The notes below the pieces were generated by a model. That model did not search any database. It had not been told where the DNA came from and saw only the letters and a list, made by a program, of their open reading frames with translations. Shown piece by piece: positions 10 through 8,374 of a DNA stretch of 8,463 nt. The stretch lies in IMG/VR virus record IMGVR_UViG_3300000096_000017, one strand, 5' to 3'. The stretch comes from a virus (Duplodnaviria; Heunggongvirae; Uroviricota; Caudoviricetes). The translations under genes were made by a program, and so were the position numbers. How positions within the stretch are numbered: position 1 is the first letter of the stretch; every line of letters starts with the position of its first letter.

Positions 10-1716
10 TTACTCAGAGTCACCGGCATCAATCGTGTCGCCGCTTATAAAGTTAAGCCCGCCTTTTTTGGCCATTGTCAGCGTTACACGAGTGAAGTAA
101 TCAGCGCCGTTGCGTGGGTGCATATCGTTGATAGCCGAACCCCACAGCGTGGTACGGTTGACCAGCGCCGGAGTGGTCGGATGCTGGAACGGGATGGCCG
201 GGACAGCATCACCAGTCACGAAGCCTGCTTTACCCGGATTTTCATCACGGACGTAGCACAGCACATCCATCGAGCTGAACTGAATGTTCTCTGTCGTTAA
301 GTTCTTACAAATACCAGCAGGTACTTCGTACACTTTCACGTTACCGAACAGGGTACCGATGTAGTGAACATACGGAGTCTGGATATAGTCTTCGGCTGAC
401 TGGAAGAAATCCTTCGGCAACTGTTTGAAGAAAGATGCTGCATCAGCACCAGCAAACATCCCCATCGCACCAGAAGATTTAACGCGCTCAATAATGTCGC
501 GATATACAGTCTGGAATTTGCCACGAATGATGGTTGCCCATACATCAAAGGACTGGTTAACCGGCAGAGCGATGTCAAAGGTGTCGGTCGCAAGAGTACG
601 CCAGATCATGATGCGAAGACGCAGCATATCCTGTTCATGAGACAGGTATTCCTTCAGGGTGCGGAACTGTAGGGAACCCAGGTCCAGACCAAATTCACGC
701 TGTGCTTCATACGCCGCCTGTACCGTGTGCTCAGCCGCGATAACGAACTGACTTGGGAACAGGGTGTATTTCTTCATTTCGTGGTTGATCAGCGGGATCA
801 GCTCAGGAGCGGCTTCAATATTGATTTCCGTCTCAATTGCGATCTCAGTGCCTTTATCCGGCGCTTTGGAGAACGACAGGGCAATCTGACCAATGTTGTA
901 GTTCAGAGAGCAGGTAACAGTGATTTGCTCACCAGCAGCATTAGTAAACGAGTGAAGTAGGCTGCCGGAACCGTTATCAACAACAGACTTAATACGGTTA
1001 ACGTAGATGTTAGTGCGACCTTTTCGGATTGGTACATTCTGGCCTTCGAAGTCTTCCATCTTGAAGGTTGCGGTTTTGCTGGTGCCATCGGAGCTTGCCA
1101 CCAGCACATAGCGGCGACGTAACTGGCTGTACACACCGACGGATTGCATGTCCAGAACATCACCAGCAGCATAAGAACCAAAAGATGAACCTGCCACGTT
1201 AAAGACTTCATAGATGTCGGACTGGTCACGCGTAACCGGAATGAAGGTACACGCATCAGCGGTAGCTGCCCCCAACTGAACAGGCAGGATCATCGCGAGG
1301 AATAAAGGCAGACGCATAACACCGTCAGAAACGCTCATCATCTCTGCTGCGACGGATTCCAGCATCGCTTTATTAGTGGCATCCATGCTATTGCGGGTGG
1401 ACTCAATCAGGCAGTTTTCCAGCGTCTGGTGGCAGGAGGCCAGAATTTCCGGACGCGGCATAGATTTATGTGCTGCGGCGTAGTCAGCCAGTGCACTTGC
1501 CCACGCTGTAGCGATTTGAGCGGTGGCATTATCAGAGATACCCGCAAAAACCGGGTCTTTACGTGCAGCTTCAAGGATAGATGCGGCACGCGCGGCATCA
1601 TCTTTAATGAATTGGTTATCAGTACCGAACTGCGCAGTGCTTGCCCAGCCAAGCACAGCTTTAGAGCGTTTTGCGATATCTGCAATACGATTCTGGTATT
1701 CGCGTAAGTTACTCAA
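10..1716 (-). CDS. Large structural protein, probably major head (capsid) protein precursor, analogous by position to P1 gene 23
   Basis: Single long minus-strand ORF (track 10..1737, 575 aa) with no in-frame ATG in its first ~90 codons. The track start at 1737 is TTG with no ribosome-binding site; a second in-frame TTG at 1716 follows AGGAAG by 6 nt, so 1716 is the likelier start. Ala-rich N-terminal region resembles a cleavable scaffold-like domain. Product call rests on size, position next to parS as I recall for P1, and the palindromic promoter upstream; no catalytic motif was recognised. Confidence 0.5.
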   Translation of the reverse strand: MSNLREYQNRIADIAKRSKAVLGWASTAQFGTDNQFIKDDAARAASILEAARKDPVFAGISDNATAQIATAWASALADYAAAHKSMPRPEILASCHQTLENCLIESTRNSMDATNKAMLESVAAEMMSVSDGVMRLPLFLAMILPVQLGAATADACTFIPVTRDQSDIYEVFNVAGSSFGSYAAGDVLDMQSVGVYSQLRRRYVLVASSDGTSKTATFKMEDFEGQNVPIRKGRTNIYVNRIKSVVDNGSGSLLHSFTNAAGEQITVTCSLNYNIGQIALSFSKAPDKGTEIAIETEINIEAAPELIPLINHEMKKYTLFPSQFVIAAEHTVQAAYEAQREFGLDLGSLQFRTLKEYLSHEQDMLRLRIMIWRTLATDTFDIALPVNQSFDVWATIIRGKFQTVYRDIIERVKSSGAMGMFAGADAASFFKQLPKDFFQSAEDYIQTPYVHYIGTLFGNVKVYEVPAGICKNLTTENIQFSSMDVLCYVRDENPGKAGFVTGDAVPAIPFQHPTTPALVNRTTLWGSAINDMHPRNGADYFTRVTLTMAKKGGLNFISGDTIDAGDSE

Positions 1717-1768
1717 TTTACTCTTCCTTAAACACAAGGCACTTGTGTGAATCCCTTTTCGGAAGAGA

Positions 1769-1796
1769 TTTTATTGAAAGTCACTTGTTGACTTTC
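1769..1796 (-). promoter_or_regulatory. Candidate late-type promoter for the structural gene: 8-bp inverted repeat plus -10 hexamer
   Basis: Perfect inverted repeat GAAAGTCA (1776-1783) / TGACTTTC (1789-1796) with a 5-bp spacer. On the minus strand a TAAAAT hexamer (plus 1769-1774) lies about 14 bp downstream of the palindrome centre, roughly 25-45 nt upstream of the candidate start codons. P1 late promoters are described as a -10 element plus an upstream inverted repeat bound by the late activator; the exact consensus is not recalled. Confidence 0.35.
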
Positions 1797-1853
1797 TCGT
1801 GACAAGCAATTTTTTTATTTTTTTCGGGAGTAGGGGAGGAAGGTAAAATCCAA

Positions 1854-1940
1854 GGTGAAATCGTGGCGATTTCACCTTGAAATTTTAGAGGGATTTACTT
1901 TAAAAACAGTAGGTTAATAGTGAAATTTGAATGGCGAAAG
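1854..1940 (-). other. parS: parS partition site (centromere) of the P1 type
   Basis: Begins immediately after the parB stop codon. Read on the minus strand it contains the P1 parS motif layout: box B TCGCCA (plus 1932-1937), box A ATTTCAC (1920-1926), an AT-rich ~35-bp spacer where IHF binds in P1, then ATTTCAA (1877-1883), GTGAAAT (1869-1875), box B TCGCCA (1864-1869) and box A ATTTCAC (1855-1861). Confidence 0.85.
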
Positions 1941-1941
1941 T

Positions 1942-2943
1942 TTAAGGCTTCGGCTTTTTATCGAGGCTCTTTCTAAGGATATGCCCAATCATCCTGTCGA
2001 GTTCTTCCTGTAGCTCTTTTGAAAGTCGATTAAACTCATAAGAAAATGCACGGCCTTTCACGCGCTTCCTTGCAAAGCGATCCTTGTCCTCAAATTTCCA
2101 TAATTCAGTAACTACGGACTTATCTTTAGAACCTTTATCCGTGAGTAGTGAGGCTTCCTTTGTTATCAAGCGCAGGATTTTATTTTTAACTTCATCTTCG
2201 GCCATTTCTTCAATGGATAAGATGTCGTTTATTTCCGGGGATATGTTTTGAATAAGCTGATCAAACTCTAAATTCTTGTTCCCCATTTCGTCGCCAACAG
2301 CACAAAGCGTTTTGTAGTCCGAAAAGGTTAATTCCGACTGCACAGGGAAAAGGGCGACTAATTCTTCCGGAGCACTCGCTGCCTGGAGAGCACGCGTGAC
2401 CTTCGCCTGAGACAGCCCTTCTTTGGCTGCAATATCCTTCTGACTCATCCCATCATTTTTCATTCGCATCAAACGCAGACCTATTTCTCGAATGCTGTGC
2501 TGCAATGCTGTCTGAACGTCTTTCGCTAAATTTTGCGCTTCCTGAACGCTGATCTCCTGGTCCGTGACTAAAACCCGCAACCCTACGTTCTCTAAGATGG
2601 CAGAAGCTCGACGCCGGGAACCATCCAAAATTTCAATTTTCCCTGTAGCCCGTCTAACACCTATTGCAGGGTAAAATTGCTGATGCTTAATAGTGCTTCG
2701 GATACTTTTTAATGATTTTGGCGTAAGAGATGCCTGGTCACGCCCGTTGTTATGCTGATCAACAAAGGTATCGCTTTCTACCTGGTTCGGAGGTATTACC
2801 TCTTCAATAAATGTGGCCTGGCGACCAGTTGATAACTTGAATACCTGCTCGACTCGATCGCCAGAGGCTGAAGAACTATCAAATCCGCTTAATATTGAAG
2901 GATTAAGGGTTCGCCCAATTGTTGGTCTGTTTTTCTTTGACAT
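1942..2943 (-). CDS. parB: ParB centromere-binding partition protein, 333 aa
   Basis: ATG start at 2943, TAA stop at 1942-1944; lies 16 nt downstream of parA with GGAG immediately after the parA stop. Length, position directly upstream of parS, and the translation (MSKKNRPTIGRTLNPS...) match what I recall of P1 ParB. Confidence 0.95.
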   Translation of the reverse strand: MSKKNRPTIGRTLNPSILSGFDSSSASGDRVEQVFKLSTGRQATFIEEVIPPNQVESDTFVDQHNNGRDQASLTPKSLKSIRSTIKHQQFYPAIGVRRATGKIEILDGSRRRASAILENVGLRVLVTDQEISVQEAQNLAKDVQTALQHSIREIGLRLMRMKNDGMSQKDIAAKEGLSQAKVTRALQAASAPEELVALFPVQSELTFSDYKTLCAVGDEMGNKNLEFDQLIQNISPEINDILSIEEMAEDEVKNKILRLITKEASLLTDKGSKDKSVVTELWKFEDKDRFARKRVKGRAFSYEFNRLSKELQEELDRMIGHILRKSLDKKPKP

Positions 2944-2959
2944 GGGGGTTTCTTACTCC

Positions 2960-4156
2960 TCAGTTAGATCTGATAAATTCAATACGGTCAAAAACTGCTT
3001 TAGCAAAATCTTCCGCAGCAATTCGCGCGTTCTTCAATGCATCAGCACTACCAACATACGTTGCCGGGTTAGCTGAAATAACAGTGTCAAAAGACTCGCC
3101 GCAGCGTTCAAAACCGTCAAGGCGAGGGAGGACAACATCAAGCATATCCCCACCGAACACTTCTTTAGCCAGGCTATGGCAATACTTATGGTCTGCCTTG
3201 TTACTCAACTTGGACATAAAACCAATGTTAGTTGCAAGCTGACACTCGCAGCCTTCATCCGAAATGAGTTTCACCAACTCAGGAAGGCGGGCAACGTATT
3301 TAAGCGATGAGTGGAAATCAACCGTTGCAGGCGGCAGAGGTGTAAACAGTATATTGGCCGAGGCCAAAGCATTTTTCAGGAAGGCGTCAAGGTGAGGACC
3401 ACTATCAACGAGGATAAAGTCATAATCGCTCTTCAGCTTATCAATCACATTTTCTTTCAGGACTGCATGGATGTTCTGACCCGGTAGATGCTCATTGCAC
3501 AGCTCTCTCCAATCGGATGCAATAAAGGCATCGTCAATCGACGCAGGCATAACGTCAACCCCAGGTACAACAGAAGGAACAATAAACTCCTCTAACAGCT
3601 CTTCACGGCTTACATTCTGCAACATAGCCTGTGCAGATGTTGCGTTTACGATACCAATAGAGTGTTTATGGCTTAAAAACATCGTTGCTGAAGATTGCGG
3701 ATCAAGGTCAATAACCAGAATCCTTAAATCTTCCATCAGAAGATGAGGATGAGCACGCATTGCATGCGCCAGAGAAACCGTCGATACAGTTTTTGACACA
3801 CCGCCTTTAAGATTGGAGATGAAAATCACATACGCTTCGCTGTAGCGATCCCGGTATTTTGGCACTCCGCGATGTTCATATATGTCAATGATGTTCTGAA
3901 TTGACATCGCATATTTCATTGAAGAGCCAGCAGGGCGTTTATCGAAAACATAACCCTTTTCTTCCATTTCACTTACGGCATAGTCAACGTTCGCACGAGT
4001 CAGTAGAGGCAATTTTGCCAGTGCCGCTTTCGCATAGACCTGGTAAAACTCGTTCGCGTGTAGCTCATCCTTTTGCAACTGTACTTGTTCAGTCAGAACA
4101 TTGAGCATTCTATTTGCTCTTTGAGCAACCTTGTGAAGCTGGCTGGAATCACTCAT
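2960..4156 (-). CDS. parA: ParA partition ATPase, 398 aa, type Ia with N-terminal DNA-binding extension
   Basis: ATG at 4156 preceded by AGGA at 9-nt spacing. Deviant Walker A motif KGGVSKT within NLKGGVSKTVST, and a ~100-aa N-terminal extension typical of autoregulatory type Ia ParA. Translation (MSDSSQLHKVAQRANRML...) matches my recollection of P1 ParA. Confidence 0.95.
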   Translation of the reverse strand: MSDSSQLHKVAQRANRMLNVLTEQVQLQKDELHANEFYQVYAKAALAKLPLLTRANVDYAVSEMEEKGYVFDKRPAGSSMKYAMSIQNIIDIYEHRGVPKYRDRYSEAYVIFISNLKGGVSKTVSTVSLAHAMRAHPHLLMEDLRILVIDLDPQSSATMFLSHKHSIGIVNATSAQAMLQNVSREELLEEFIVPSVVPGVDVMPASIDDAFIASDWRELCNEHLPGQNIHAVLKENVIDKLKSDYDFILVDSGPHLDAFLKNALASANILFTPLPPATVDFHSSLKYVARLPELVKLISDEGCECQLATNIGFMSKLSNKADHKYCHSLAKEVFGGDMLDVVLPRLDGFERCGESFDTVISANPATYVGSADALKNARIAAEDFAKAVFDRIEFIRSN

Positions 4157-4169
4157 CGAAAGTCATCCT

Positions 4170-4209
4170 TTATGCTGTATTTTTGAATTTAATTAAAAAT
4201 GCTGCATAA
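4170..4209 (-). promoter_or_regulatory. par operator/promoter region (imperfect 40-bp inverted repeat)
   Basis: TTATGCTGTATTTTTGAATT (4170-4189) is a near inverse complement of AATTAAAAATGCTGCATAA (4191-4209), with 2 mismatches and 1 indel, in an AT-rich stretch 14-53 bp upstream of the parA ATG. In P1, ParA binds a large imperfect palindrome overlapping the par promoter. Confidence 0.55.
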
Positions 4210-4296
4210 AATAATAATGTATGCGTAGATGCTTGTACATAGCATTCTCTGCATGTTTGGTTCATTTTGCACGATTGAGAGTTACAAGGAGGGCAC

Positions 4297-4317
4297 AAAA
4301 AAGCCCCGTTCAGGGGC
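4297..4317 (-). terminator. Rho-independent terminator after the 269-aa gene
   Basis: Stem GCCCC (4303-4307), loop GTTCA, stem GGGGC (4313-4317), starting 8 nt past the stop codon at 4325-4327. On the minus strand the hairpin is followed by a TTTTTT run (plus A-run 4297-4302). Confidence 0.6.
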
Positions 4318-4324
4318 ATCAGTG

Positions 4325-5134
4325 TTATTTGCTAAGAGCAGCGAATAATCGTTCGAAATCGATAGTATCTATAGCACGCGTAAGCGCCGGAAGTTCAGCC
4401 TCAAAGTACCCGTGTCGATCGTAAAAGAAGGGACCGAAGAGCGAGGCATGTTGGATTCTACTTCGCCCCAGCCCGGACACACAGTTAAGCCCATTACCGG
4501 CTAAAAGGCTAAAAAACTTCTCTGGATTATCGTGGTAAAGCTGGGAATCAATGGTGGCGGTTAACTCTTCCATAGGGAAGCACACCCGCCCTGTATCCCA
4601 GGGATATTTAGTCCGAAGCATAAACATTGCTTTCAGCAATTCACATTGAGCGCGGATCGCGTCCGGTTCATAGCCAGATATGGAGACATAAGCCACGTCC
4701 CTCATTCCTGCGTCATCTTTGAAAGTCACGATAGAAGTAACATCCAGCTCTTTTTCGAAAGAGCAAGCAGCATCTACTGGACGCTGAAGTAAATCATTCG
4801 ACTTAATGCGCTCGAGAATCCCTCCCCACATATCATTTAGATATTCGATATGAGCCAAAACCTTATCAAGACACTCTCGTGTAAACCATTCAGTATGCCC
4901 GCCACCGGCGCTTTTCTCCCACGGCGCATTCCAGGGGAAAAAGGTTGCGTGTAAAGCCCGCTCAAGATTAACCATTGCCAAACGCGTACCACGATAGACC
5001 CGTGAAAGCGCAAAATCGGGACTCACTTGTAGCCCTTTAAACCGTGCCAATGGACCACATGAAATGCCGATTTTAAAAGTATCTCCGTTCTCTGGCACCA
5101 GAACGTAGAGGTAGTGTTGTTTCTCTTCTTGCAT
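4325..5134 (-). CDS. Standalone 269-aa protein with GIY-YIG-like (T5orf172/MUG113-type) N-terminal domain and uncharacterised C-terminal domain
   Basis: ATG at 5134, TAA at 4325-4327, own terminator downstream. Residues 8-25 YLYVLVPENGDTFKIGIS fit the GIY-x(9-11)-YIG spacing, followed by a conserved-position Arg (GPLAR), LERALHATF and GGGHTEWF, matching the pattern I recall for T5orf172-type domains. The C-terminal ~170 aa have no motif I recognise. Weak ribosome-binding site. Confidence 0.75.
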   Translation of the reverse strand: MQEEKQHYLYVLVPENGDTFKIGISCGPLARFKGLQVSPDFALSRVYRGTRLAMVNLERALHATFFPWNAPWEKSAGGGHTEWFTRECLDKVLAHIEYLNDMWGGILERIKSNDLLQRPVDAACSFEKELDVTSIVTFKDDAGMRDVAYVSISGYEPDAIRAQCELLKAMFMLRTKYPWDTGRVCFPMEELTATIDSQLYHDNPEKFFSLLAGNGLNCVSGLGRSRIQHASLFGPFFYDRHGYFEAELPALTRAIDTIDFERLFAALSK

Positions 5135-5167
5135 ATCAATACCACTGCTTGATGAGAACCGCGCAAA

Positions 5168-5425
5168 TGTTGACTATGCGCGAAGGTTAATGTGAATAGT
5201 TGACTATGCGCGATGTGACTACAGTCAAAAGTTGACTGTAGTCGATTTAACTCCACCAAAGATCGACTATGTAAGATATTGTCGGGAGAAACGTTGACTA
5301 TACGCGATGAAATGCCCCTAAAAGCCATCTCAATAGCGACTTGCAGAATATTGACGCCAGCAAAAATCCACCAGCGTCAACGAATGTCGCCTATAGTCAA
5401 CTTCTCGCTATCGCATATAGTCAAT
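5168..5425. repeat. incA-like iteron array downstream of repA, about 9-10 copies in both orientations
   Basis: Core AGTCAA/TTGACT with flanks matching the origin iterons. Reverse-orientation copies at 5168-5183, 5198-5214, 5231-5243, 5293-5308 (perfect reverse complement of an origin iteron) and degenerate 5263-5275, 5348-5360. Forward copies at 5217-5228, 5388-5401, 5410-5425 and degenerate 5372-5385. Confidence 0.8.
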
Positions 5426-5426
5426 A

Positions 5427-6311
5427 TTATGGATTGCGCTTATGGATCTGGAAGCCGATTTTCCTGCCGTTTTTTATCTCTGAAAATTTAAGATATTCAA
5501 TAGCTTCCAAATCTTTCATGGCTTTTCTGATAACGCTATTTTGCACGCTAACGGATGATTTGAGATTAAGCCTCGCTCTAAGGCGCTCAATGCTGACAGG
5601 TGCCGGGTTGGCGGGTAGAGCCTCAAAGAATGTATACAGTACCTTGGCCGTCTCTTTGCGCCCTAGTTTATCCAGCATCTTCAGCTTCAGGATTCGCTTA
5701 TAGTCAACATAGTAAAGTTCAGATAGCTGTTTCTGCGGCTGGATCTCGATAACATCAAGCTCGGTATTCAGGCTGCTATATGCCAACAAGTTGACGTTAA
5801 TGTTATTGAGATGACCTTTTGCCGCCGGGAAGCGGAATTTGACAACTGTCTGCTGAATGCGTGTCAGAGAGTCATCAATACTTTTACGGAACGCCTTTGA
5901 AAGGCGCTTACGTGGATAGCCGCATCGATCGGCAAACTCGGAGAATGGCAGGGTGATTATGCCGTCATCATCAGGTGCGTAGTCAAACAACGCGGAGGTT
6001 ATGCCCACCCACACCTTAAAATCAGTATCCATATCCAGGCGTGGACCATGAATTTCAATTCCCTCATAGCCTTCCTGCTCAACAATTTTGAGGCTTGATA
6101 GTTCTTCAGTTGCGTTCGTTGTGTTTGTTGTAACTGACGATCCGCGACGTAGCGCCACATTGGTAGATTTTAAGGTTGGCACAAACACACCTAAGCGCAA
6201 CAAAGCGATGGGTTGTATAGTGCTGTTGTTATTGGGCTTCAGGCTGTGGATTTCTCCTGTATTTCCTGCAACTTCTTCAACGCTAAGGAAGCCTTTACTT
6301 TCTTCCGGCAT
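5427..6311 (-). CDS. repA: Iteron-binding replication initiator RepA, P1 RepA family
   Basis: Track ORF 5427..6347 starts at TTG; an in-frame ATG at 6311 is preceded by GGAG at 8-nt spacing (GTG at 6314 also possible), giving ~294 aa. Motif-by-motif similarity to P1 RepA as I recall it (QPIALLRLGVFVP, GPRLDMDTDFKVW, YTFFEALPANPAPVSIERLRARL, C-terminal HKRNP) but clearly diverged. Flanked on both sides by iterons. Confidence 0.9.
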   Translation of the reverse strand: MPEESKGFLSVEEVAGNTGEIHSLKPNNNSTIQPIALLRLGVFVPTLKSTNVALRRGSSVTTNTTNATEELSSLKIVEQEGYEGIEIHGPRLDMDTDFKVWVGITSALFDYAPDDDGIITLPFSEFADRCGYPRKRLSKAFRKSIDDSLTRIQQTVVKFRFPAAKGHLNNINVNLLAYSSLNTELDVIEIQPQKQLSELYYVDYKRILKLKMLDKLGRKETAKVLYTFFEALPANPAPVSIERLRARLNLKSSVSVQNSVIRKAMKDLEAIEYLKFSEIKNGRKIGFQIHKRNP

Positions 6312-6359
6312 CACGGTTTCTCCATGTGTGGCGCGGCCTGACGTCAATTTGGATGGCTG

Positions 6360-6603
6360 TTATCAACAGCTGTGAATATTCAGACTCTAAAATCGCTTAC
6401 AGTCAATGTTTCTGTCGCGTATAGTCAACAATAAATCGCGTGCAGTCAACAATAAATCGTGCACAGTCAACATAAAATCGCGTATAGTCAATGTTGATCC
6501 CATTTCAGGCCAGTAATGACGCGGCTTACAGCGATCCGGGATCTTCTTTGGATCTTCCTAGGTTCTCTTTAGGATCTGTTTATTGGATCTATGCTGTGGA
6601 TAA
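6360..6603. other. Vegetative plasmid origin (oriR-like): DnaA boxes, GATC cluster and iterons
   Basis: Perfect DnaA box TGTGGATAA at 6595-6603; six GATC sites at 6496, 6533, 6540, 6551, 6573 and 6586, several in a GGATCT context; the five iterons; and an 8/9 DnaA-like box TTATCAACA at 6360-6368 between iterons and repA. Same module order as P1 oriR. Confidence 0.7.
6392..6493. repeat. Origin iterons: five direct repeats of ~17-19 bp at 21-bp spacing
   Basis: Copies at 6392-6408, 6415-6430, 6435-6451, 6456-6472 and 6477-6493, consensus approximately ATCGCGTRYAGTCAAYR, all in the same orientation. AGTCAA cores start at 6401, 6423, 6444, 6465 and 6486. Confidence 0.85.
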
Positions 6604-6611
6604 GTTGAATA

Positions 6612-6632
6612 AACCGGCCAACAAAGCCGGTT
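6612..6632 (-). terminator. Possible intrinsic terminator for the upstream minus-strand operon
   Basis: Stem AACCGGC (6612-6618), 7-nt loop, stem GCCGGTT (6626-6632), 15 bp downstream of the 130-aa gene stop. On the minus strand it is followed by a T-rich but interrupted tract (TATTCAACTTAT), so it is weak. Confidence 0.35.
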
Positions 6633-6646
6633 GGAAGGAAGTCATA

Positions 6647-7039
6647 TTATTCTACGCTTTCGATAAGAAGACCATGTTCATAACATTTAAGCTCATCGCC
6701 TTCATACAGGAATTGGTATCCAACACCACCATCTTCATGGACATTAGGGAATAACTCATAACTCACTGAAGAGCAAATCACACCAATGCAGCGATCAACT
6801 CCTTCTCGTTCTTCAGTGCTGAAAAAATCCTCTTCGGTAAGAACATGAGTACATTGCTCATCAGCATAGGTCGGAAATACATGCTCGATACAATCCGGAT
6901 GTTTTAAACCAAGTTGATCGGCAAGTTCGAAAGCATGACGGTATTGTTCAGATCCTGGCTTGCCAACAGTGATGTGCTCAATTTTGTAGATTGAAGTCGC
7001 TTTGTTGATAGTTTGCTTAACTGTTACTTTATCAGACAA
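6647..7039 (-). CDS. Hypothetical acidic Cys-containing protein, 130 aa
   Basis: ORF with TTG start at 7039 (no in-frame ATG or GTG anywhere), preceded by AAGGG and beginning 10 nt after the lipoprotein gene stop (TAA 7049-7051), suggesting translational coupling. No motif recognised. Confidence 0.6.
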   Translation of the reverse strand: MSDKVTVKQTINKATSIYKIEHITVGKPGSEQYRHAFELADQLGLKHPDCIEHVFPTYADEQCTHVLTEEDFFSTEEREGVDRCIGVICSSVSYELFPNVHEDGGVGYQFLYEGDELKCYEHGLLIESVE

Positions 7040-7048
7040 AAATCCCTT

Positions 7049-7381
7049 TTAGTTACCGCTGATAGCGCGGTTGTAATCATTAACGTTGCGATTCTTCCTG
7101 TTAATCCCCATCAGCATCGTTTCTGTATCGAGGATATACGCTGGCAGATCATCAAAATATTCACTGCTAAACTCCGGCATCCTGCACATAAATGCACTTT
7201 TGGGGTCAGAGTGCTTAACCTTTGTCGGCGTCGGCGTTAAATTCGCTGATCGACTCCCGGAGCAACCGCTGAGTGTCAGCAGGAATACGCTGGCGAACAT
7301 TACCCGCCGCAACCAGTTGTTTCTGAACTTCAGCTTTTCGTTCCATTTGCCTGTCAGCATACTTGGCTTGTTCTGATTCAT
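7049..7381 (-). CDS. Outer-membrane lipoprotein, 110-aa precursor; candidate o-spanin
   Basis: ATG at 7381 preceded by AGGAAG at 6-nt spacing. Basic N-region, hydrophobic stretch VMFASVFLLTL, lipobox LSGC with Ser at +2 (outer-membrane sorting rule), then a Pro/Thr-rich mature region (TPTPT) with one further Cys. Overlaps the 3' end of the preceding gene in a different frame (7215-7381). Alternative internal ATGs at 7360 and 7300. Confidence 0.7.
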   Translation of the reverse strand: MNQNKPSMLTGKWNEKLKFRNNWLRRVMFASVFLLTLSGCSGSRSANLTPTPTKVKHSDPKSAFMCRMPEFSSEYFDDLPAYILDTETMLMGINRKNRNVNDYNRAISGN

Positions 7382-7637
7382 TTTTCACTTCCTGGCTGTG
7401 AAAATGTTGCTCTGCTTTGTTCATCGTCTCAATGGTCTGGTTAAGATCCATTATTGACTTATCACGTTCCTTAACAGCCTGATCAAGACTGCCAATTTTC
7501 TCCATGGCTTGCTTTAGCAGATGACGTTCCCATGCAAACCCAGCACCAACAAGTGCGCAAATCAGAACAAGAACACCAGTAGCAGCAAGTTTCTCCTTCA
7601 AAGACAAAGCTGTTTTTAACGTAGAAAAGAATGACAT
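7215..7637 (-). CDS. Membrane protein with N-terminal transmembrane segment and coiled-coil-like domain, 140 aa; candidate i-spanin
   Basis: Track ORF starts at TTG 7664, but an in-frame ATG at 7637 is preceded by AGGAGG at 5-nt spacing. One hydrophobic segment (ATGVLVLICALVGAGFAW) followed by a K/E/Q-rich helical region. Its last 167 nt overlap the lipoprotein gene. Confidence 0.7.
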   Translation of the reverse strand: MSFFSTLKTALSLKEKLAATGVLVLICALVGAGFAWERHLLKQAMEKIGSLDQAVKERDKSIMDLNQTIETMNKAEQHFHSQEVKNESEQAKYADRQMERKAEVQKQLVAAGNVRQRIPADTQRLLRESISEFNADADKG

Positions 7638-7676
7638 GTCTTCCTCCTGAAGAAAAATTATCAATGAAGTCCTTTG

Positions 7677-8339
7677 TTACCGTGCCGCTTTGTTTAATTC
7701 ATCAAGAACAGAATCAGGAACCAAAGCGGCGACTGCGCTGGCTGTACTGGCCTTATTTGCTGATGCTTCCGCAAGCGCGGTACCGATAGCATGGTTATAA
7801 GCAGTTATGGCTACGTTGGCGCTTTCCTTCACCCGTTCATACTGCTGTTGCAATGCAACTGTGGGCGCTGTTGTCTGGTTGAAAACAACCCCAAACTGTT
7901 CAGTTGCTACTTTCAGAGATTCAATTTGCTCTTCTGTTAGTGCTGGTGGGGGAGTGGCAGTGCCACCGCCAGAACCAGAGCCTGACGAGCTTCCTGAGCC
8001 AGTGTTAAGGGTCTGGTTAATCTCCCCCATAGCAGCGACTAAACTTGATGTATTAAGCGCGTTTACAGCGTCCTCAAGCGATTTAGTAATAGTCACATCA
8101 CCAATGGCAATAGAGATCGGCAGTTCTGATACTTCTCGCTCATTAGCATGGCAGTAAACATCCCAACCAATATCGAGTTGAAGCAGCATTGACAGATCTG
8201 CATAACCAGCCAACAGGTCCGCGTGCTTAGTTGCCAGTTCTACAATGTTCGTTAAGCCGGTTGTGGTTGTTCTGATCGTTGAAACATAGCTGGTAATAGT
8301 GTCGGGATAGACAATTGTATCCAGAATTAATCCGGTCAA
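7677..8339 (-). CDS. Hypothetical two-domain protein with Gly/Ser-rich linker, 220 aa from the track start
   Basis: Open frame ending at TAA 7677-7679, 39 nt upstream of the next gene. Start is uncertain: the frame is open from 8447, the first start-like codon is TTG at 8339 with no ribosome-binding site, and the first ATG is codon 51. Central linker NTGSGSSSGSGSGGGTATPPP. Confidence 0.6.
   Translation of the reverse strand: MTGLILDTIVYPDTITSYVSTIRTTTTGLTNIVELATKHADLLAGYADLSMLLQLDIGWDVYCHANEREVSELPISIAIGDVTITKSLEDAVNALNTSSLVAAMGEINQTLNTGSGSSSGSGSGGGTATPPPALTEEQIESLKVATEQFGVVFNQTTAPTVALQQQYERVKESANVAITAYNHAIGTALAEASANKASTASAVAALVPDSVLDELNKAAR
7807..8157 (+). other. Plus-strand 116-aa ORF antisense to the 220-aa gene, probably non-coding shadow ORF
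   Basis: Lies entirely inside the minus-strand 220-aa ORF; its translation is low-complexity (the antisense of the Gly/Ser linker reads as PPPEPEPDELPEP). Listed only for completeness. Confidence 0.1.
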
Positions 8340-8374
8340 TTCTTCTGCAAGCAGTTTTGGGTGATGCTGCCAAC

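Follow-up and report, generated by a model that had tools for sequence, protein, structure and literature searches.

An 8,463-nucleotide stretch of DNA from a virus of the Caudoviricetes (IMG/VR record IMGVR_UViG_3300000096_000017; this whole stretch is called the window below) carries a cluster of GATC sites between a set of direct repeats and a DnaA box. The question raised by this locus is whether the cluster belongs to a plasmid replication origin of the P1 type, as an initial annotation had proposed, and whether such an origin would depend on Dam, SeqA and DnaA of the host.

Identity of the window and its replicon type

Sequence comparison identifies the window as the plasmid-maintenance (par/rep) region of a P1-like phage-plasmid that carries a p0111 replicon. 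For the segment 5300–6800, a database search returned many E. coli plasmids at 100% identity, and the phages RCS47, SJ46 and JL22 at 97.5%. Comparison with P1 by blastn gave a left match (943–4258, 99.3% identity), which covers the end of gene 23, parS, parB, parA and Ppar, and a right match (6509–8359, 93% identity), which covers upfA, mlp, ppfA and upfB. The difference between the two flanks shows that the backbone is mosaic as well. Except for a 59-bp patch within repA, blastn found no DNA match to P1 at 4259–6508, and in place of P1 DNA this block holds an ORF with a T5orf172 domain, seven iteron copies, repA and five direct iterons. Relative to P1, the replicon swap thus has its left end at 4259, just upstream of Ppar, and its right end at ~6604–6625, a patch formed by the DnaA-box region and the upfA terminator beside a 7-bp indel.

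The repA gene (5427–6311, − strand; ATG at 6311, preceded by a GGAG ribosome-binding site) encodes a p0111-type initiator of 294 aa with Rep3_N and Rep3_C domains (Pfam), and is transcribed away from the origin. Its product was 42% identical to P1 RepA (BLASTP, E = 1e-70), and the origin iterons of the window could not be aligned with the 19-bp iterons of P1. These two features place the replicon in the p0111 type rather than in strict IncY (P1/P7). RepA was also 100% identical in amino acid sequence to RepA of RCS47 and of an E. albertii plasmid, even though RCS47 departs from the window by 2.5% in the DNA around the gene, and E. albertii by 9% in the origin core. This indicates strong purifying selection on the initiator. 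It has been reported that p0111 replaces the IncY repA in 24 of 55 subgroup-1 P1-like phage-plasmids (PMC9603915). The p0111 type is defined in PMC9603915 and PMC6906374, neither of which analyses its origin, and oriR and iterons go unmentioned in PMC9603915. Similarly, the public records inspected, including that of RCS47, have only coding sequences annotated in this region and no origin feature.

Downstream of repA, in a position like that of P1 incA, we found a second iteron array (5164–5425) with seven copies in both orientations, belonging to repeat families D2, D5 and D6. Five inverted copies occupy 5164–5310 at ~31 bp spacing, two direct copies lie at 5385–5425, and the copies form inverted-repeat pairs with the origin iterons. 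Besides, an iteron-like copy, ATTCGCTTATAGTCAAC, was present at 5692–5708 within the repA coding sequence (82% to the reference iteron). The T5orf172-domain ORF (4325–5134, − strand, 269 aa) is located between these control iterons and parA, travels with the p0111 rep cassette and has no counterpart in P1. Its counterpart in E. albertii is labelled by PGAP as a GIY-YIG nuclease family protein. We take its position to be that of the unknown gene 'gp57' beside repA' in PMC9603915, a match made by position only.

Organization of the origin region

Read along the direction of repA transcription (− strand), the origin begins with a DnaA box (6603–6595), followed by an array of GGATCT repeats (6590–6533), a spacer (6532–6501), five iterons (6495–6390), a leader with weak DnaA-like boxes and repA itself. 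The initial call of an origin at this place is well supported, by collinearity with P1, homology of the core, a Rep3-type RepA, and five iterons together with the second iteron array.

The five direct iterons (6390–6495, + strand; core TCGCGTAYAGTCAAY) start at 6393, 6415, 6436, 6457 and 6478, a spacing of 22/21/21/21, and are presumed to be the RepA binding sites and the counterpart of P1 incC. GATC occurs in none of them. A consensus scan of the − strand at 6250–6720 returned no promoter for repA, and by eye TTGACT could be seen in the reverse complement of the iterons, but no convincing −10 element. On the + strand, promoter-like hexamers were seen inside the iterons at 6396–6425 (CTTACA-18-TATAGT) and 6460–6488 (TGCACA-17-TATAGT), both directed at the GATC array.

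The initial annotation had described six GATC sites at 6496–6589, several of them as GGATCT, between the iterons and the DnaA box. This description proved exact: the sites start at 6496, 6533, 6540, 6551, 6573 and 6586, four of them are GGATCT (6539–6544, 6550–6555, 6572–6577 and 6585–6590), and they lie between the iteron array and the box at 6595–6603. When GATC density was compared with the rest of the window, as had been suggested, the window as a whole was ordinary (36 sites versus 33 ± 5 expected) and the local clustering was far beyond chance. Of 2000 dinucleotide-preserving shuffles, two contained six GATC within 94 bp and none contained five within 57 bp.

Most of the cluster is a phased array (6533–6590), presumed to be the element for unwinding and SeqA binding. 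Tandem Repeats Finder detected an 11-bp array at 6539–6590 with the consensus GGATCTTCTTT. We refer to the repeat positions as slots, beginning with slot A at 6533 (CGATCCG) and continuing with 11-bp-phased GGATCT units at 6540, 6551, 6562, 6573 and 6586. The unit at 6562 is mutated to GTTC, such that GGTTCT at 6561–6566 is an array unit without GATC. At least four GATC-containing short repeats about one helical turn apart are present (6533, 6540, 6551, 6573 and 6586). The remaining site, 6496, is a genuine GATC that had been counted with the cluster, but it lies outside the phased array, at the junction of iterons and spacer (6496–6499, directly 3' of the last iteron). Such a junction GATC is common to RepFIB, IncFIB(K), Cronobacter and IncHI2, at about −87 to −91 from the last GATC, whereas P1 lacks it and reads GATA there.

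Between iterons and GATC repeats is a G+C-rich spacer (6501–6532, CAGGCCAG...GCGCGGCTTACAGC), with a GC content of 0.53–0.60 over 6500–6540. It aligns with a GC-rich stretch of P1, and its motif is kept in P1, RepFIB, IncFIB(K), the APEC plasmid and Cronobacter. This stable block adjoins a repeat region of moderately low stability: its duplex stability is −1.24 to −1.26 kcal/mol per step versus a window mean of −1.37 (sd 0.09), which makes it ~1.2–1.5 sd less stable than the mean, though not the least stable stretch of the window. An exact match to the IHF core WATCAANNNNTTR was absent from the whole window, and an Rfam scan of the whole window gave zero matches. Two other candidates were rejected. 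A likeness of the repeats to the 13-mers of oriC was dropped, as only the 6573 unit came within 2 mismatches, no better than unrelated sites of the window. An ORF on the + strand over the core (6491–6754) was judged spurious; it overlaps upfA on the opposite strand, and its frame is interrupted by indels of 1 bp and 7 bp in the comparison with P1.

At the outer edge of the origin, the perfect DnaA box that had been reported at 6595–6603 is indeed present (TGTGGATAA, which is TTATCCACA on the − strand). It is the only perfect box of the window, and simple arithmetic gives an expectation of ~0.06 such boxes when both strands of 8.4 kb are counted. In the alignment it corresponds to the first of the two tandem boxes of P1 and to the annotated DnaA protein_bind feature of P1/P7. 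At the position of the second, perfect box of P1, the window has a degenerate remnant, GTTGAATAA (6604–6612, − strand, 6/9). A 7-bp deletion relative to P1 follows directly, and rightward of it identity to P1 climbs to backbone level. Next to this, at 6613–6640 on the − strand, a hairpin (stem 6634–6618) with a T-run follows upfA and is kept in P1. It looks like an intrinsic terminator that would keep upfA transcription off the origin.

A second DnaA-like box had been noted at 6360–6368. It is present, with 8 of 9 bases matching (TTATCAACA, + strand), but statistically it is within chance: ~1.8 matches would be expected if up to one mismatch is allowed, another 8/9 match occurs at 974–982, and the mismatch at 6360–6368 falls on a base that is fixed in the relaxed consensus TTWTNCACA. 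What speaks for this box is position only, between the iterons and the repA start, where it is conserved in RCS47 and E. albertii. A 7/9 match on the − strand (ATATTCACA, 6371–6379) accompanies it in the repA leader. P1 has a second array of DnaA boxes on the far side of its origin (PMC4980987), which gives the weak boxes at 6360–6379 a plausible role; they are possibly the counterpart of that array.

Relationship to the P1 origin

The initial annotation stated that the locus mirrors the P1 origin. We found more than a likeness: by sequence, the core is homologous to the region annotated as the oriR core in P1 and P7, with which 6501–6612 aligns base for base. Over 6509–6603, 72 of 95 positions (76%) were identical to P1, in a stretch that includes the GC-rich segment, Dam sites 1–5 and the DnaA boxes of P1. 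The aligned P1/P7 annotation reads 'Dam methylation sites 1-5 in the region of incC' and is accompanied by a DnaA protein-binding feature. Four of the five Dam sites of P1 match GATCs of the window: sites 1, 2, 3 and 5 correspond to 6533, 6540, 6551 and 6586, respectively. Dam site 4 of P1 (GGGATCTG) corresponds to GGTTCT at 6561–6566, where GATC is lost. Conversely, GGATCT of the window with its GATC at 6573 corresponds to GGACCT in P1, which has no GATC. The window therefore lacks one P1 site and keeps a slot that P1 has lost. The tandem boxes of P1 (AGTGGATAA-TGTGGATAA) are represented by the single perfect box, the 6/9 remnant and the 7-bp deletion.

In other respects as well, the two origins agree in architecture and differ in specificity. 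In P1/P7, oriR consists of DnaA boxes, 7-bp GATC repeats, a G+C-rich stretch and the five incC iterons, with repA and incA beyond. Shared features include the order and orientation of these elements, the place between upfA and parA, the position of the DnaA box, a homologous RepA and a second iteron array after repA. In contrast to P1/P7 (IncY), the window has unrelated iterons, so that its incompatibility specificity differs (p0111, PMC9603915), and it has the extra junction GATC and the extra T5orf172 ORF.

A chimera in which the core of P1 itself had been joined to foreign iterons at ~6500, close to the start of the blastn match at 6509, was considered and rejected. The core is 76% identical to P1, whereas binned identity to the right of ~6612–6625 is 94–98%, and non-P1 replicons match the core equally well (IncHI2, 79%; IncFIB(K), ~81%; APEC plasmid, 83%). 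The core therefore arrived with the p0111 cassette.

Occurrence of the core in other replicons

A sensitive search with 6496–6650 as query yielded partial matches at 79–83% identity in 2738 plasmids. The core adjoins an initiator of the 'RepB family' or RepHI2 in IncHI2, IncFIB(K), the APEC plasmid, E. coli IncF RepFIB and Cronobacter, and in all related replicons examined it is flanked by RepA homologs (36–49% identity) in the same relative position. A motif scan with TTATTGGATCTAYNNNGNGGAWAA, limited to one genome per species, found 19 loci, 15 of which were true cores, from Pantoea, Rahnella, Cedecea, Kluyvera, Photorhabdus, Klebsiella, Buttiauxella and Escherichia. Each true core had 4–6 GATC in the preceding 100 bp and ~5 iterons of lineage-specific sequence. 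A RepA homolog (36–49%) was found on the iteron side in the same orientation in 13 cores, and in the remaining two the locus ended before any rep gene. The other four loci were chance matches from unrelated phyla, with 1–2 GATC and the rep gene absent.

Counted from the last GATC, the slots fall at nearly constant offsets (F, 0; E, −12/−13; D, −23/−24; C, −34/−36; B, −44/−46; A, −51/−55). In an alignment of 12 lineages, slots B and F were occupied in all 12, C and D in 10 each and E in 9. All six slots are kept in Cedecea and the APEC plasmid, and individual losses differ among lineages: slot E is missing from P1, D from the window and C from IncFIB(K). A DnaA-like box with 0–2 mismatches was present at the same position in all 12 lineages.

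A closely similar design was that of RepFIB (REPI of pColV-K30) and IncFIB(K) of Klebsiella, whose Rep proteins, at 46–49% identity, are closer to that of the window than P1 RepA is. They share the five iterons, junction GATC, GC-rich spacer, phased GGATC units and then the DnaA box. They differ from the window in iteron sequences, in the slots lost, in the DnaA box, which in RepFIB is ~12 bp farther from the last GATC, and in residing on conjugative plasmids rather than a phage-plasmid. The left part of E. coli oriC also has clustered GATC in the region to be unwound, a 13-mer element that SeqA sequesters, beside a DnaA box (R1). However, oriC works with neither iterons nor a Rep protein, it can do without methylation, and the 13-mer likeness is weak. 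V. cholerae ori2 is likewise an iteron origin with a DnaA box and over-represented GATC, with a strict Dam requirement and SeqA sequestration (PMC2865523, PMC6090056). In ori2, however, the iterons themselves contain the GATC sites and the initiator needs methylation to bind, whereas in the window and P1 the iterons are free of GATC and the sites stand apart in an array of their own.

Two unusual arrangements were seen among these replicons. In IncHI2 plasmid NZ_CP039861, two tandem iteron-plus-core modules (1990–2190 and 2390–2590) lie upstream of repHI2, and several GATC slots in both have decayed (GTAC, GAAC); they may represent a duplicated origin under relaxed constraint. In Pantoea sp. 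R13S299 contig_2, one 8-kb locus holds two different cores, the first returned by the motif scan and the second, with 5 GATC, by a looser search.

Variation within the p0111 lineage

We compared 46 p0111-type contigs representing 13 haplotypes, obtained from an IMG/VR scan and three other loci. Within 6500–6603 there were 18 variable sites, 17 of which were in spacers, outside the 29 bases of GATC sites and DnaA box (hypergeometric P = 0.014). Most of this polymorphism was in the spacer at 6501–6532, and the box at 6595–6603 was invariant in 46 of 46 contigs. The sole change within the 29 bases was a singleton, 6587 A>G in IMGVR_UViG_2703718869_000013, by which GATC becomes GGTC in slot F beside the DnaA box, a slot that is otherwise universal. 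This change is a sequencing error or else a naturally occurring variant of the origin. In the case of the degenerate GGTTCT slot, retention across the lineage argues that it is old and not a sequencing error.

Proposed function and alternative explanations

The anatomy of the core, its homology, the conservation of slots across the family and the constraint within the lineage are the observations on which a functional reading can be built. On this basis, 6496–6603 is very probably the host-factor core of oriR, where RepA and DnaA would open a methylated GATC array and SeqA would sequester it in the hemimethylated state. Several features count against this reading: identity to P1 over the core is no more than 76%, there is a single good DnaA box, the unit matching P1 Dam site 4 has no GATC, the repeats are only modestly unstable, and neither an exact IHF core match in the window nor a − strand repA promoter in 6250–6720 turned up. 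The individual protein–DNA interactions and the dependence on dam, seqA and dnaA are proposed by analogy: as the p0111 iterons and RepA differ in specificity from those of P1, we infer the dependence on Dam, SeqA and DnaA from P1 and RepFIB/ColV-K30. In the proposed sequence of events, RepA monomers would fill the iterons and DnaA would bind the edge box, and the two proteins would jointly melt the intervening, moderately unstable and T-rich GATC repeats, with DnaB loading next. Firing would require full Dam methylation of the GATC sites. After passage of the fork, SeqA would bind cooperatively to hemimethylated GATC pairs on the same face and block immediate re-initiation until Dam restores full methylation.

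Mutational work on P1 is reported to show that in some repeats one change is enough to inactivate the origin. Binding of SeqA to the P1 origin core is reported by Brendler et al. 1995, cited in PMC4081077. Methylation is essential for replication of both P1 and ColV-K30 (PMC2865523, which cites Gammie and Crosa 1991 for ColV-K30). This need does not operate via initiator binding, since the iterons of both have no GATC (PMC2865523), a feature that the window shares. SeqA prefers hemimethylated GATC pairs on one helix face (PMC2691817), and the 11/11/11/13 spacing of the window fits such same-face pairing. The initial annotation had also held that sequestration couples initiation to the cell cycle. 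For P1, the methylation requirement and the binding of SeqA to the hemimethylated core are established, but coupling was an overstatement even for P1.

Among the alternatives, the strongest is that the array serves sequestration only, acting negatively as in E. coli oriC, with methylation dispensable for initiation; replication would then persist in dam− cells with copy number raised or unsynchronised. This would agree with the dispensability of methylation for initiation at oriC and V. cholerae ori1 (PMC2865523, PMC6090056), with the 11-bp same-face phasing, which suits SeqA binding (PMC2691817), and with the loss of individual slots in different lineages that keep the replicon. We consider it unlikely, because both experimentally studied relatives with the same core, P1 and the ColV-K30 RepFIB, need methylation (PMC2865523), and the RepFIB core sequence is shared with the window.

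Much less probable is that the core is an inherited relic, with replication starting elsewhere or ignoring the sites and the motifs persisting by recent ancestry. Many database copies are nearly identical, and shallow ancestry does explain part of the conservation. Against a relic, slots and box are kept across replicons with unrelated iterons and Reps of only 36–49% identity, both are avoided by within-lineage polymorphism, and the position of the module relative to iterons and rep is always the same.

The P1 pac site also uses clustered GATC, and the promoter-like hexamers lie in the neighbouring iterons, but another Dam-dependent function (a methylation-sensitive promoter or pac-like packaging site) or a chance cluster is the least credible explanation of all, given that shuffles exclude chance, homology is to the annotated oriR core and not to pac, 6496–6603 has no promoter-like site, and the same module occurs on non-phage plasmids (IncF, IncHI2).

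With an oriR core as the preferred reading, a broader proposal can be made, one that taken as a whole we regard as a conjecture falling somewhat short of probable. The core would be a portable docking module for host factors, in which the number and phasing of sites are selected, slots are exchanged in a compensatory way and the patch at ~6604–6625 served as swap crossover. In such a module, the core may stay ~76–83% conserved while the surrounding Rep and iteron specificities diverge into incompatibility groups, and selection may keep at least 4 of 6 methylatable slots, always including F and B, rather than each individual site. Loss of the P1 Dam site 4 slot in the window, together with retention of the slot lost in P1, may be an example of compensatory exchange. 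Similarly, the box/terminator patch may be the crossover point of a whole-replicon swap between IncY and p0111 among P1-like phage-plasmids.

Implications for p0111 replicons

The design of this origin core is a textbook one (P1 oriR/RepFIB), and understanding of how such origins work is unchanged by the p0111 core. The p0111 member apparently lacks annotation and a description in the papers found, but its features are just those expected of the kind. Two comparative points are modestly new: the exchange of slots, in which each lineage tolerates a different internal GATC loss while B and F are always kept, and the finding that the replicons were joined at the DnaA-box/terminator patch. The p0111-type origin has been located and can now be annotated, and it can be predicted to depend on dam, seqA and dnaA; several P1-like phage-plasmids in PMC9603915 carry ESBL genes. 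The slot-occupancy table of 12 lineages also provides a natural-variation guide to dispensable GATC positions. Besides, a Dam-like methyltransferase gene, dmt, is located ~3.3 kb to the right of the origin in RCS47 (10809 onward in RCS47), beyond the window, and dmt of P1 is under control of the C1 repressor via the operator Odmt.
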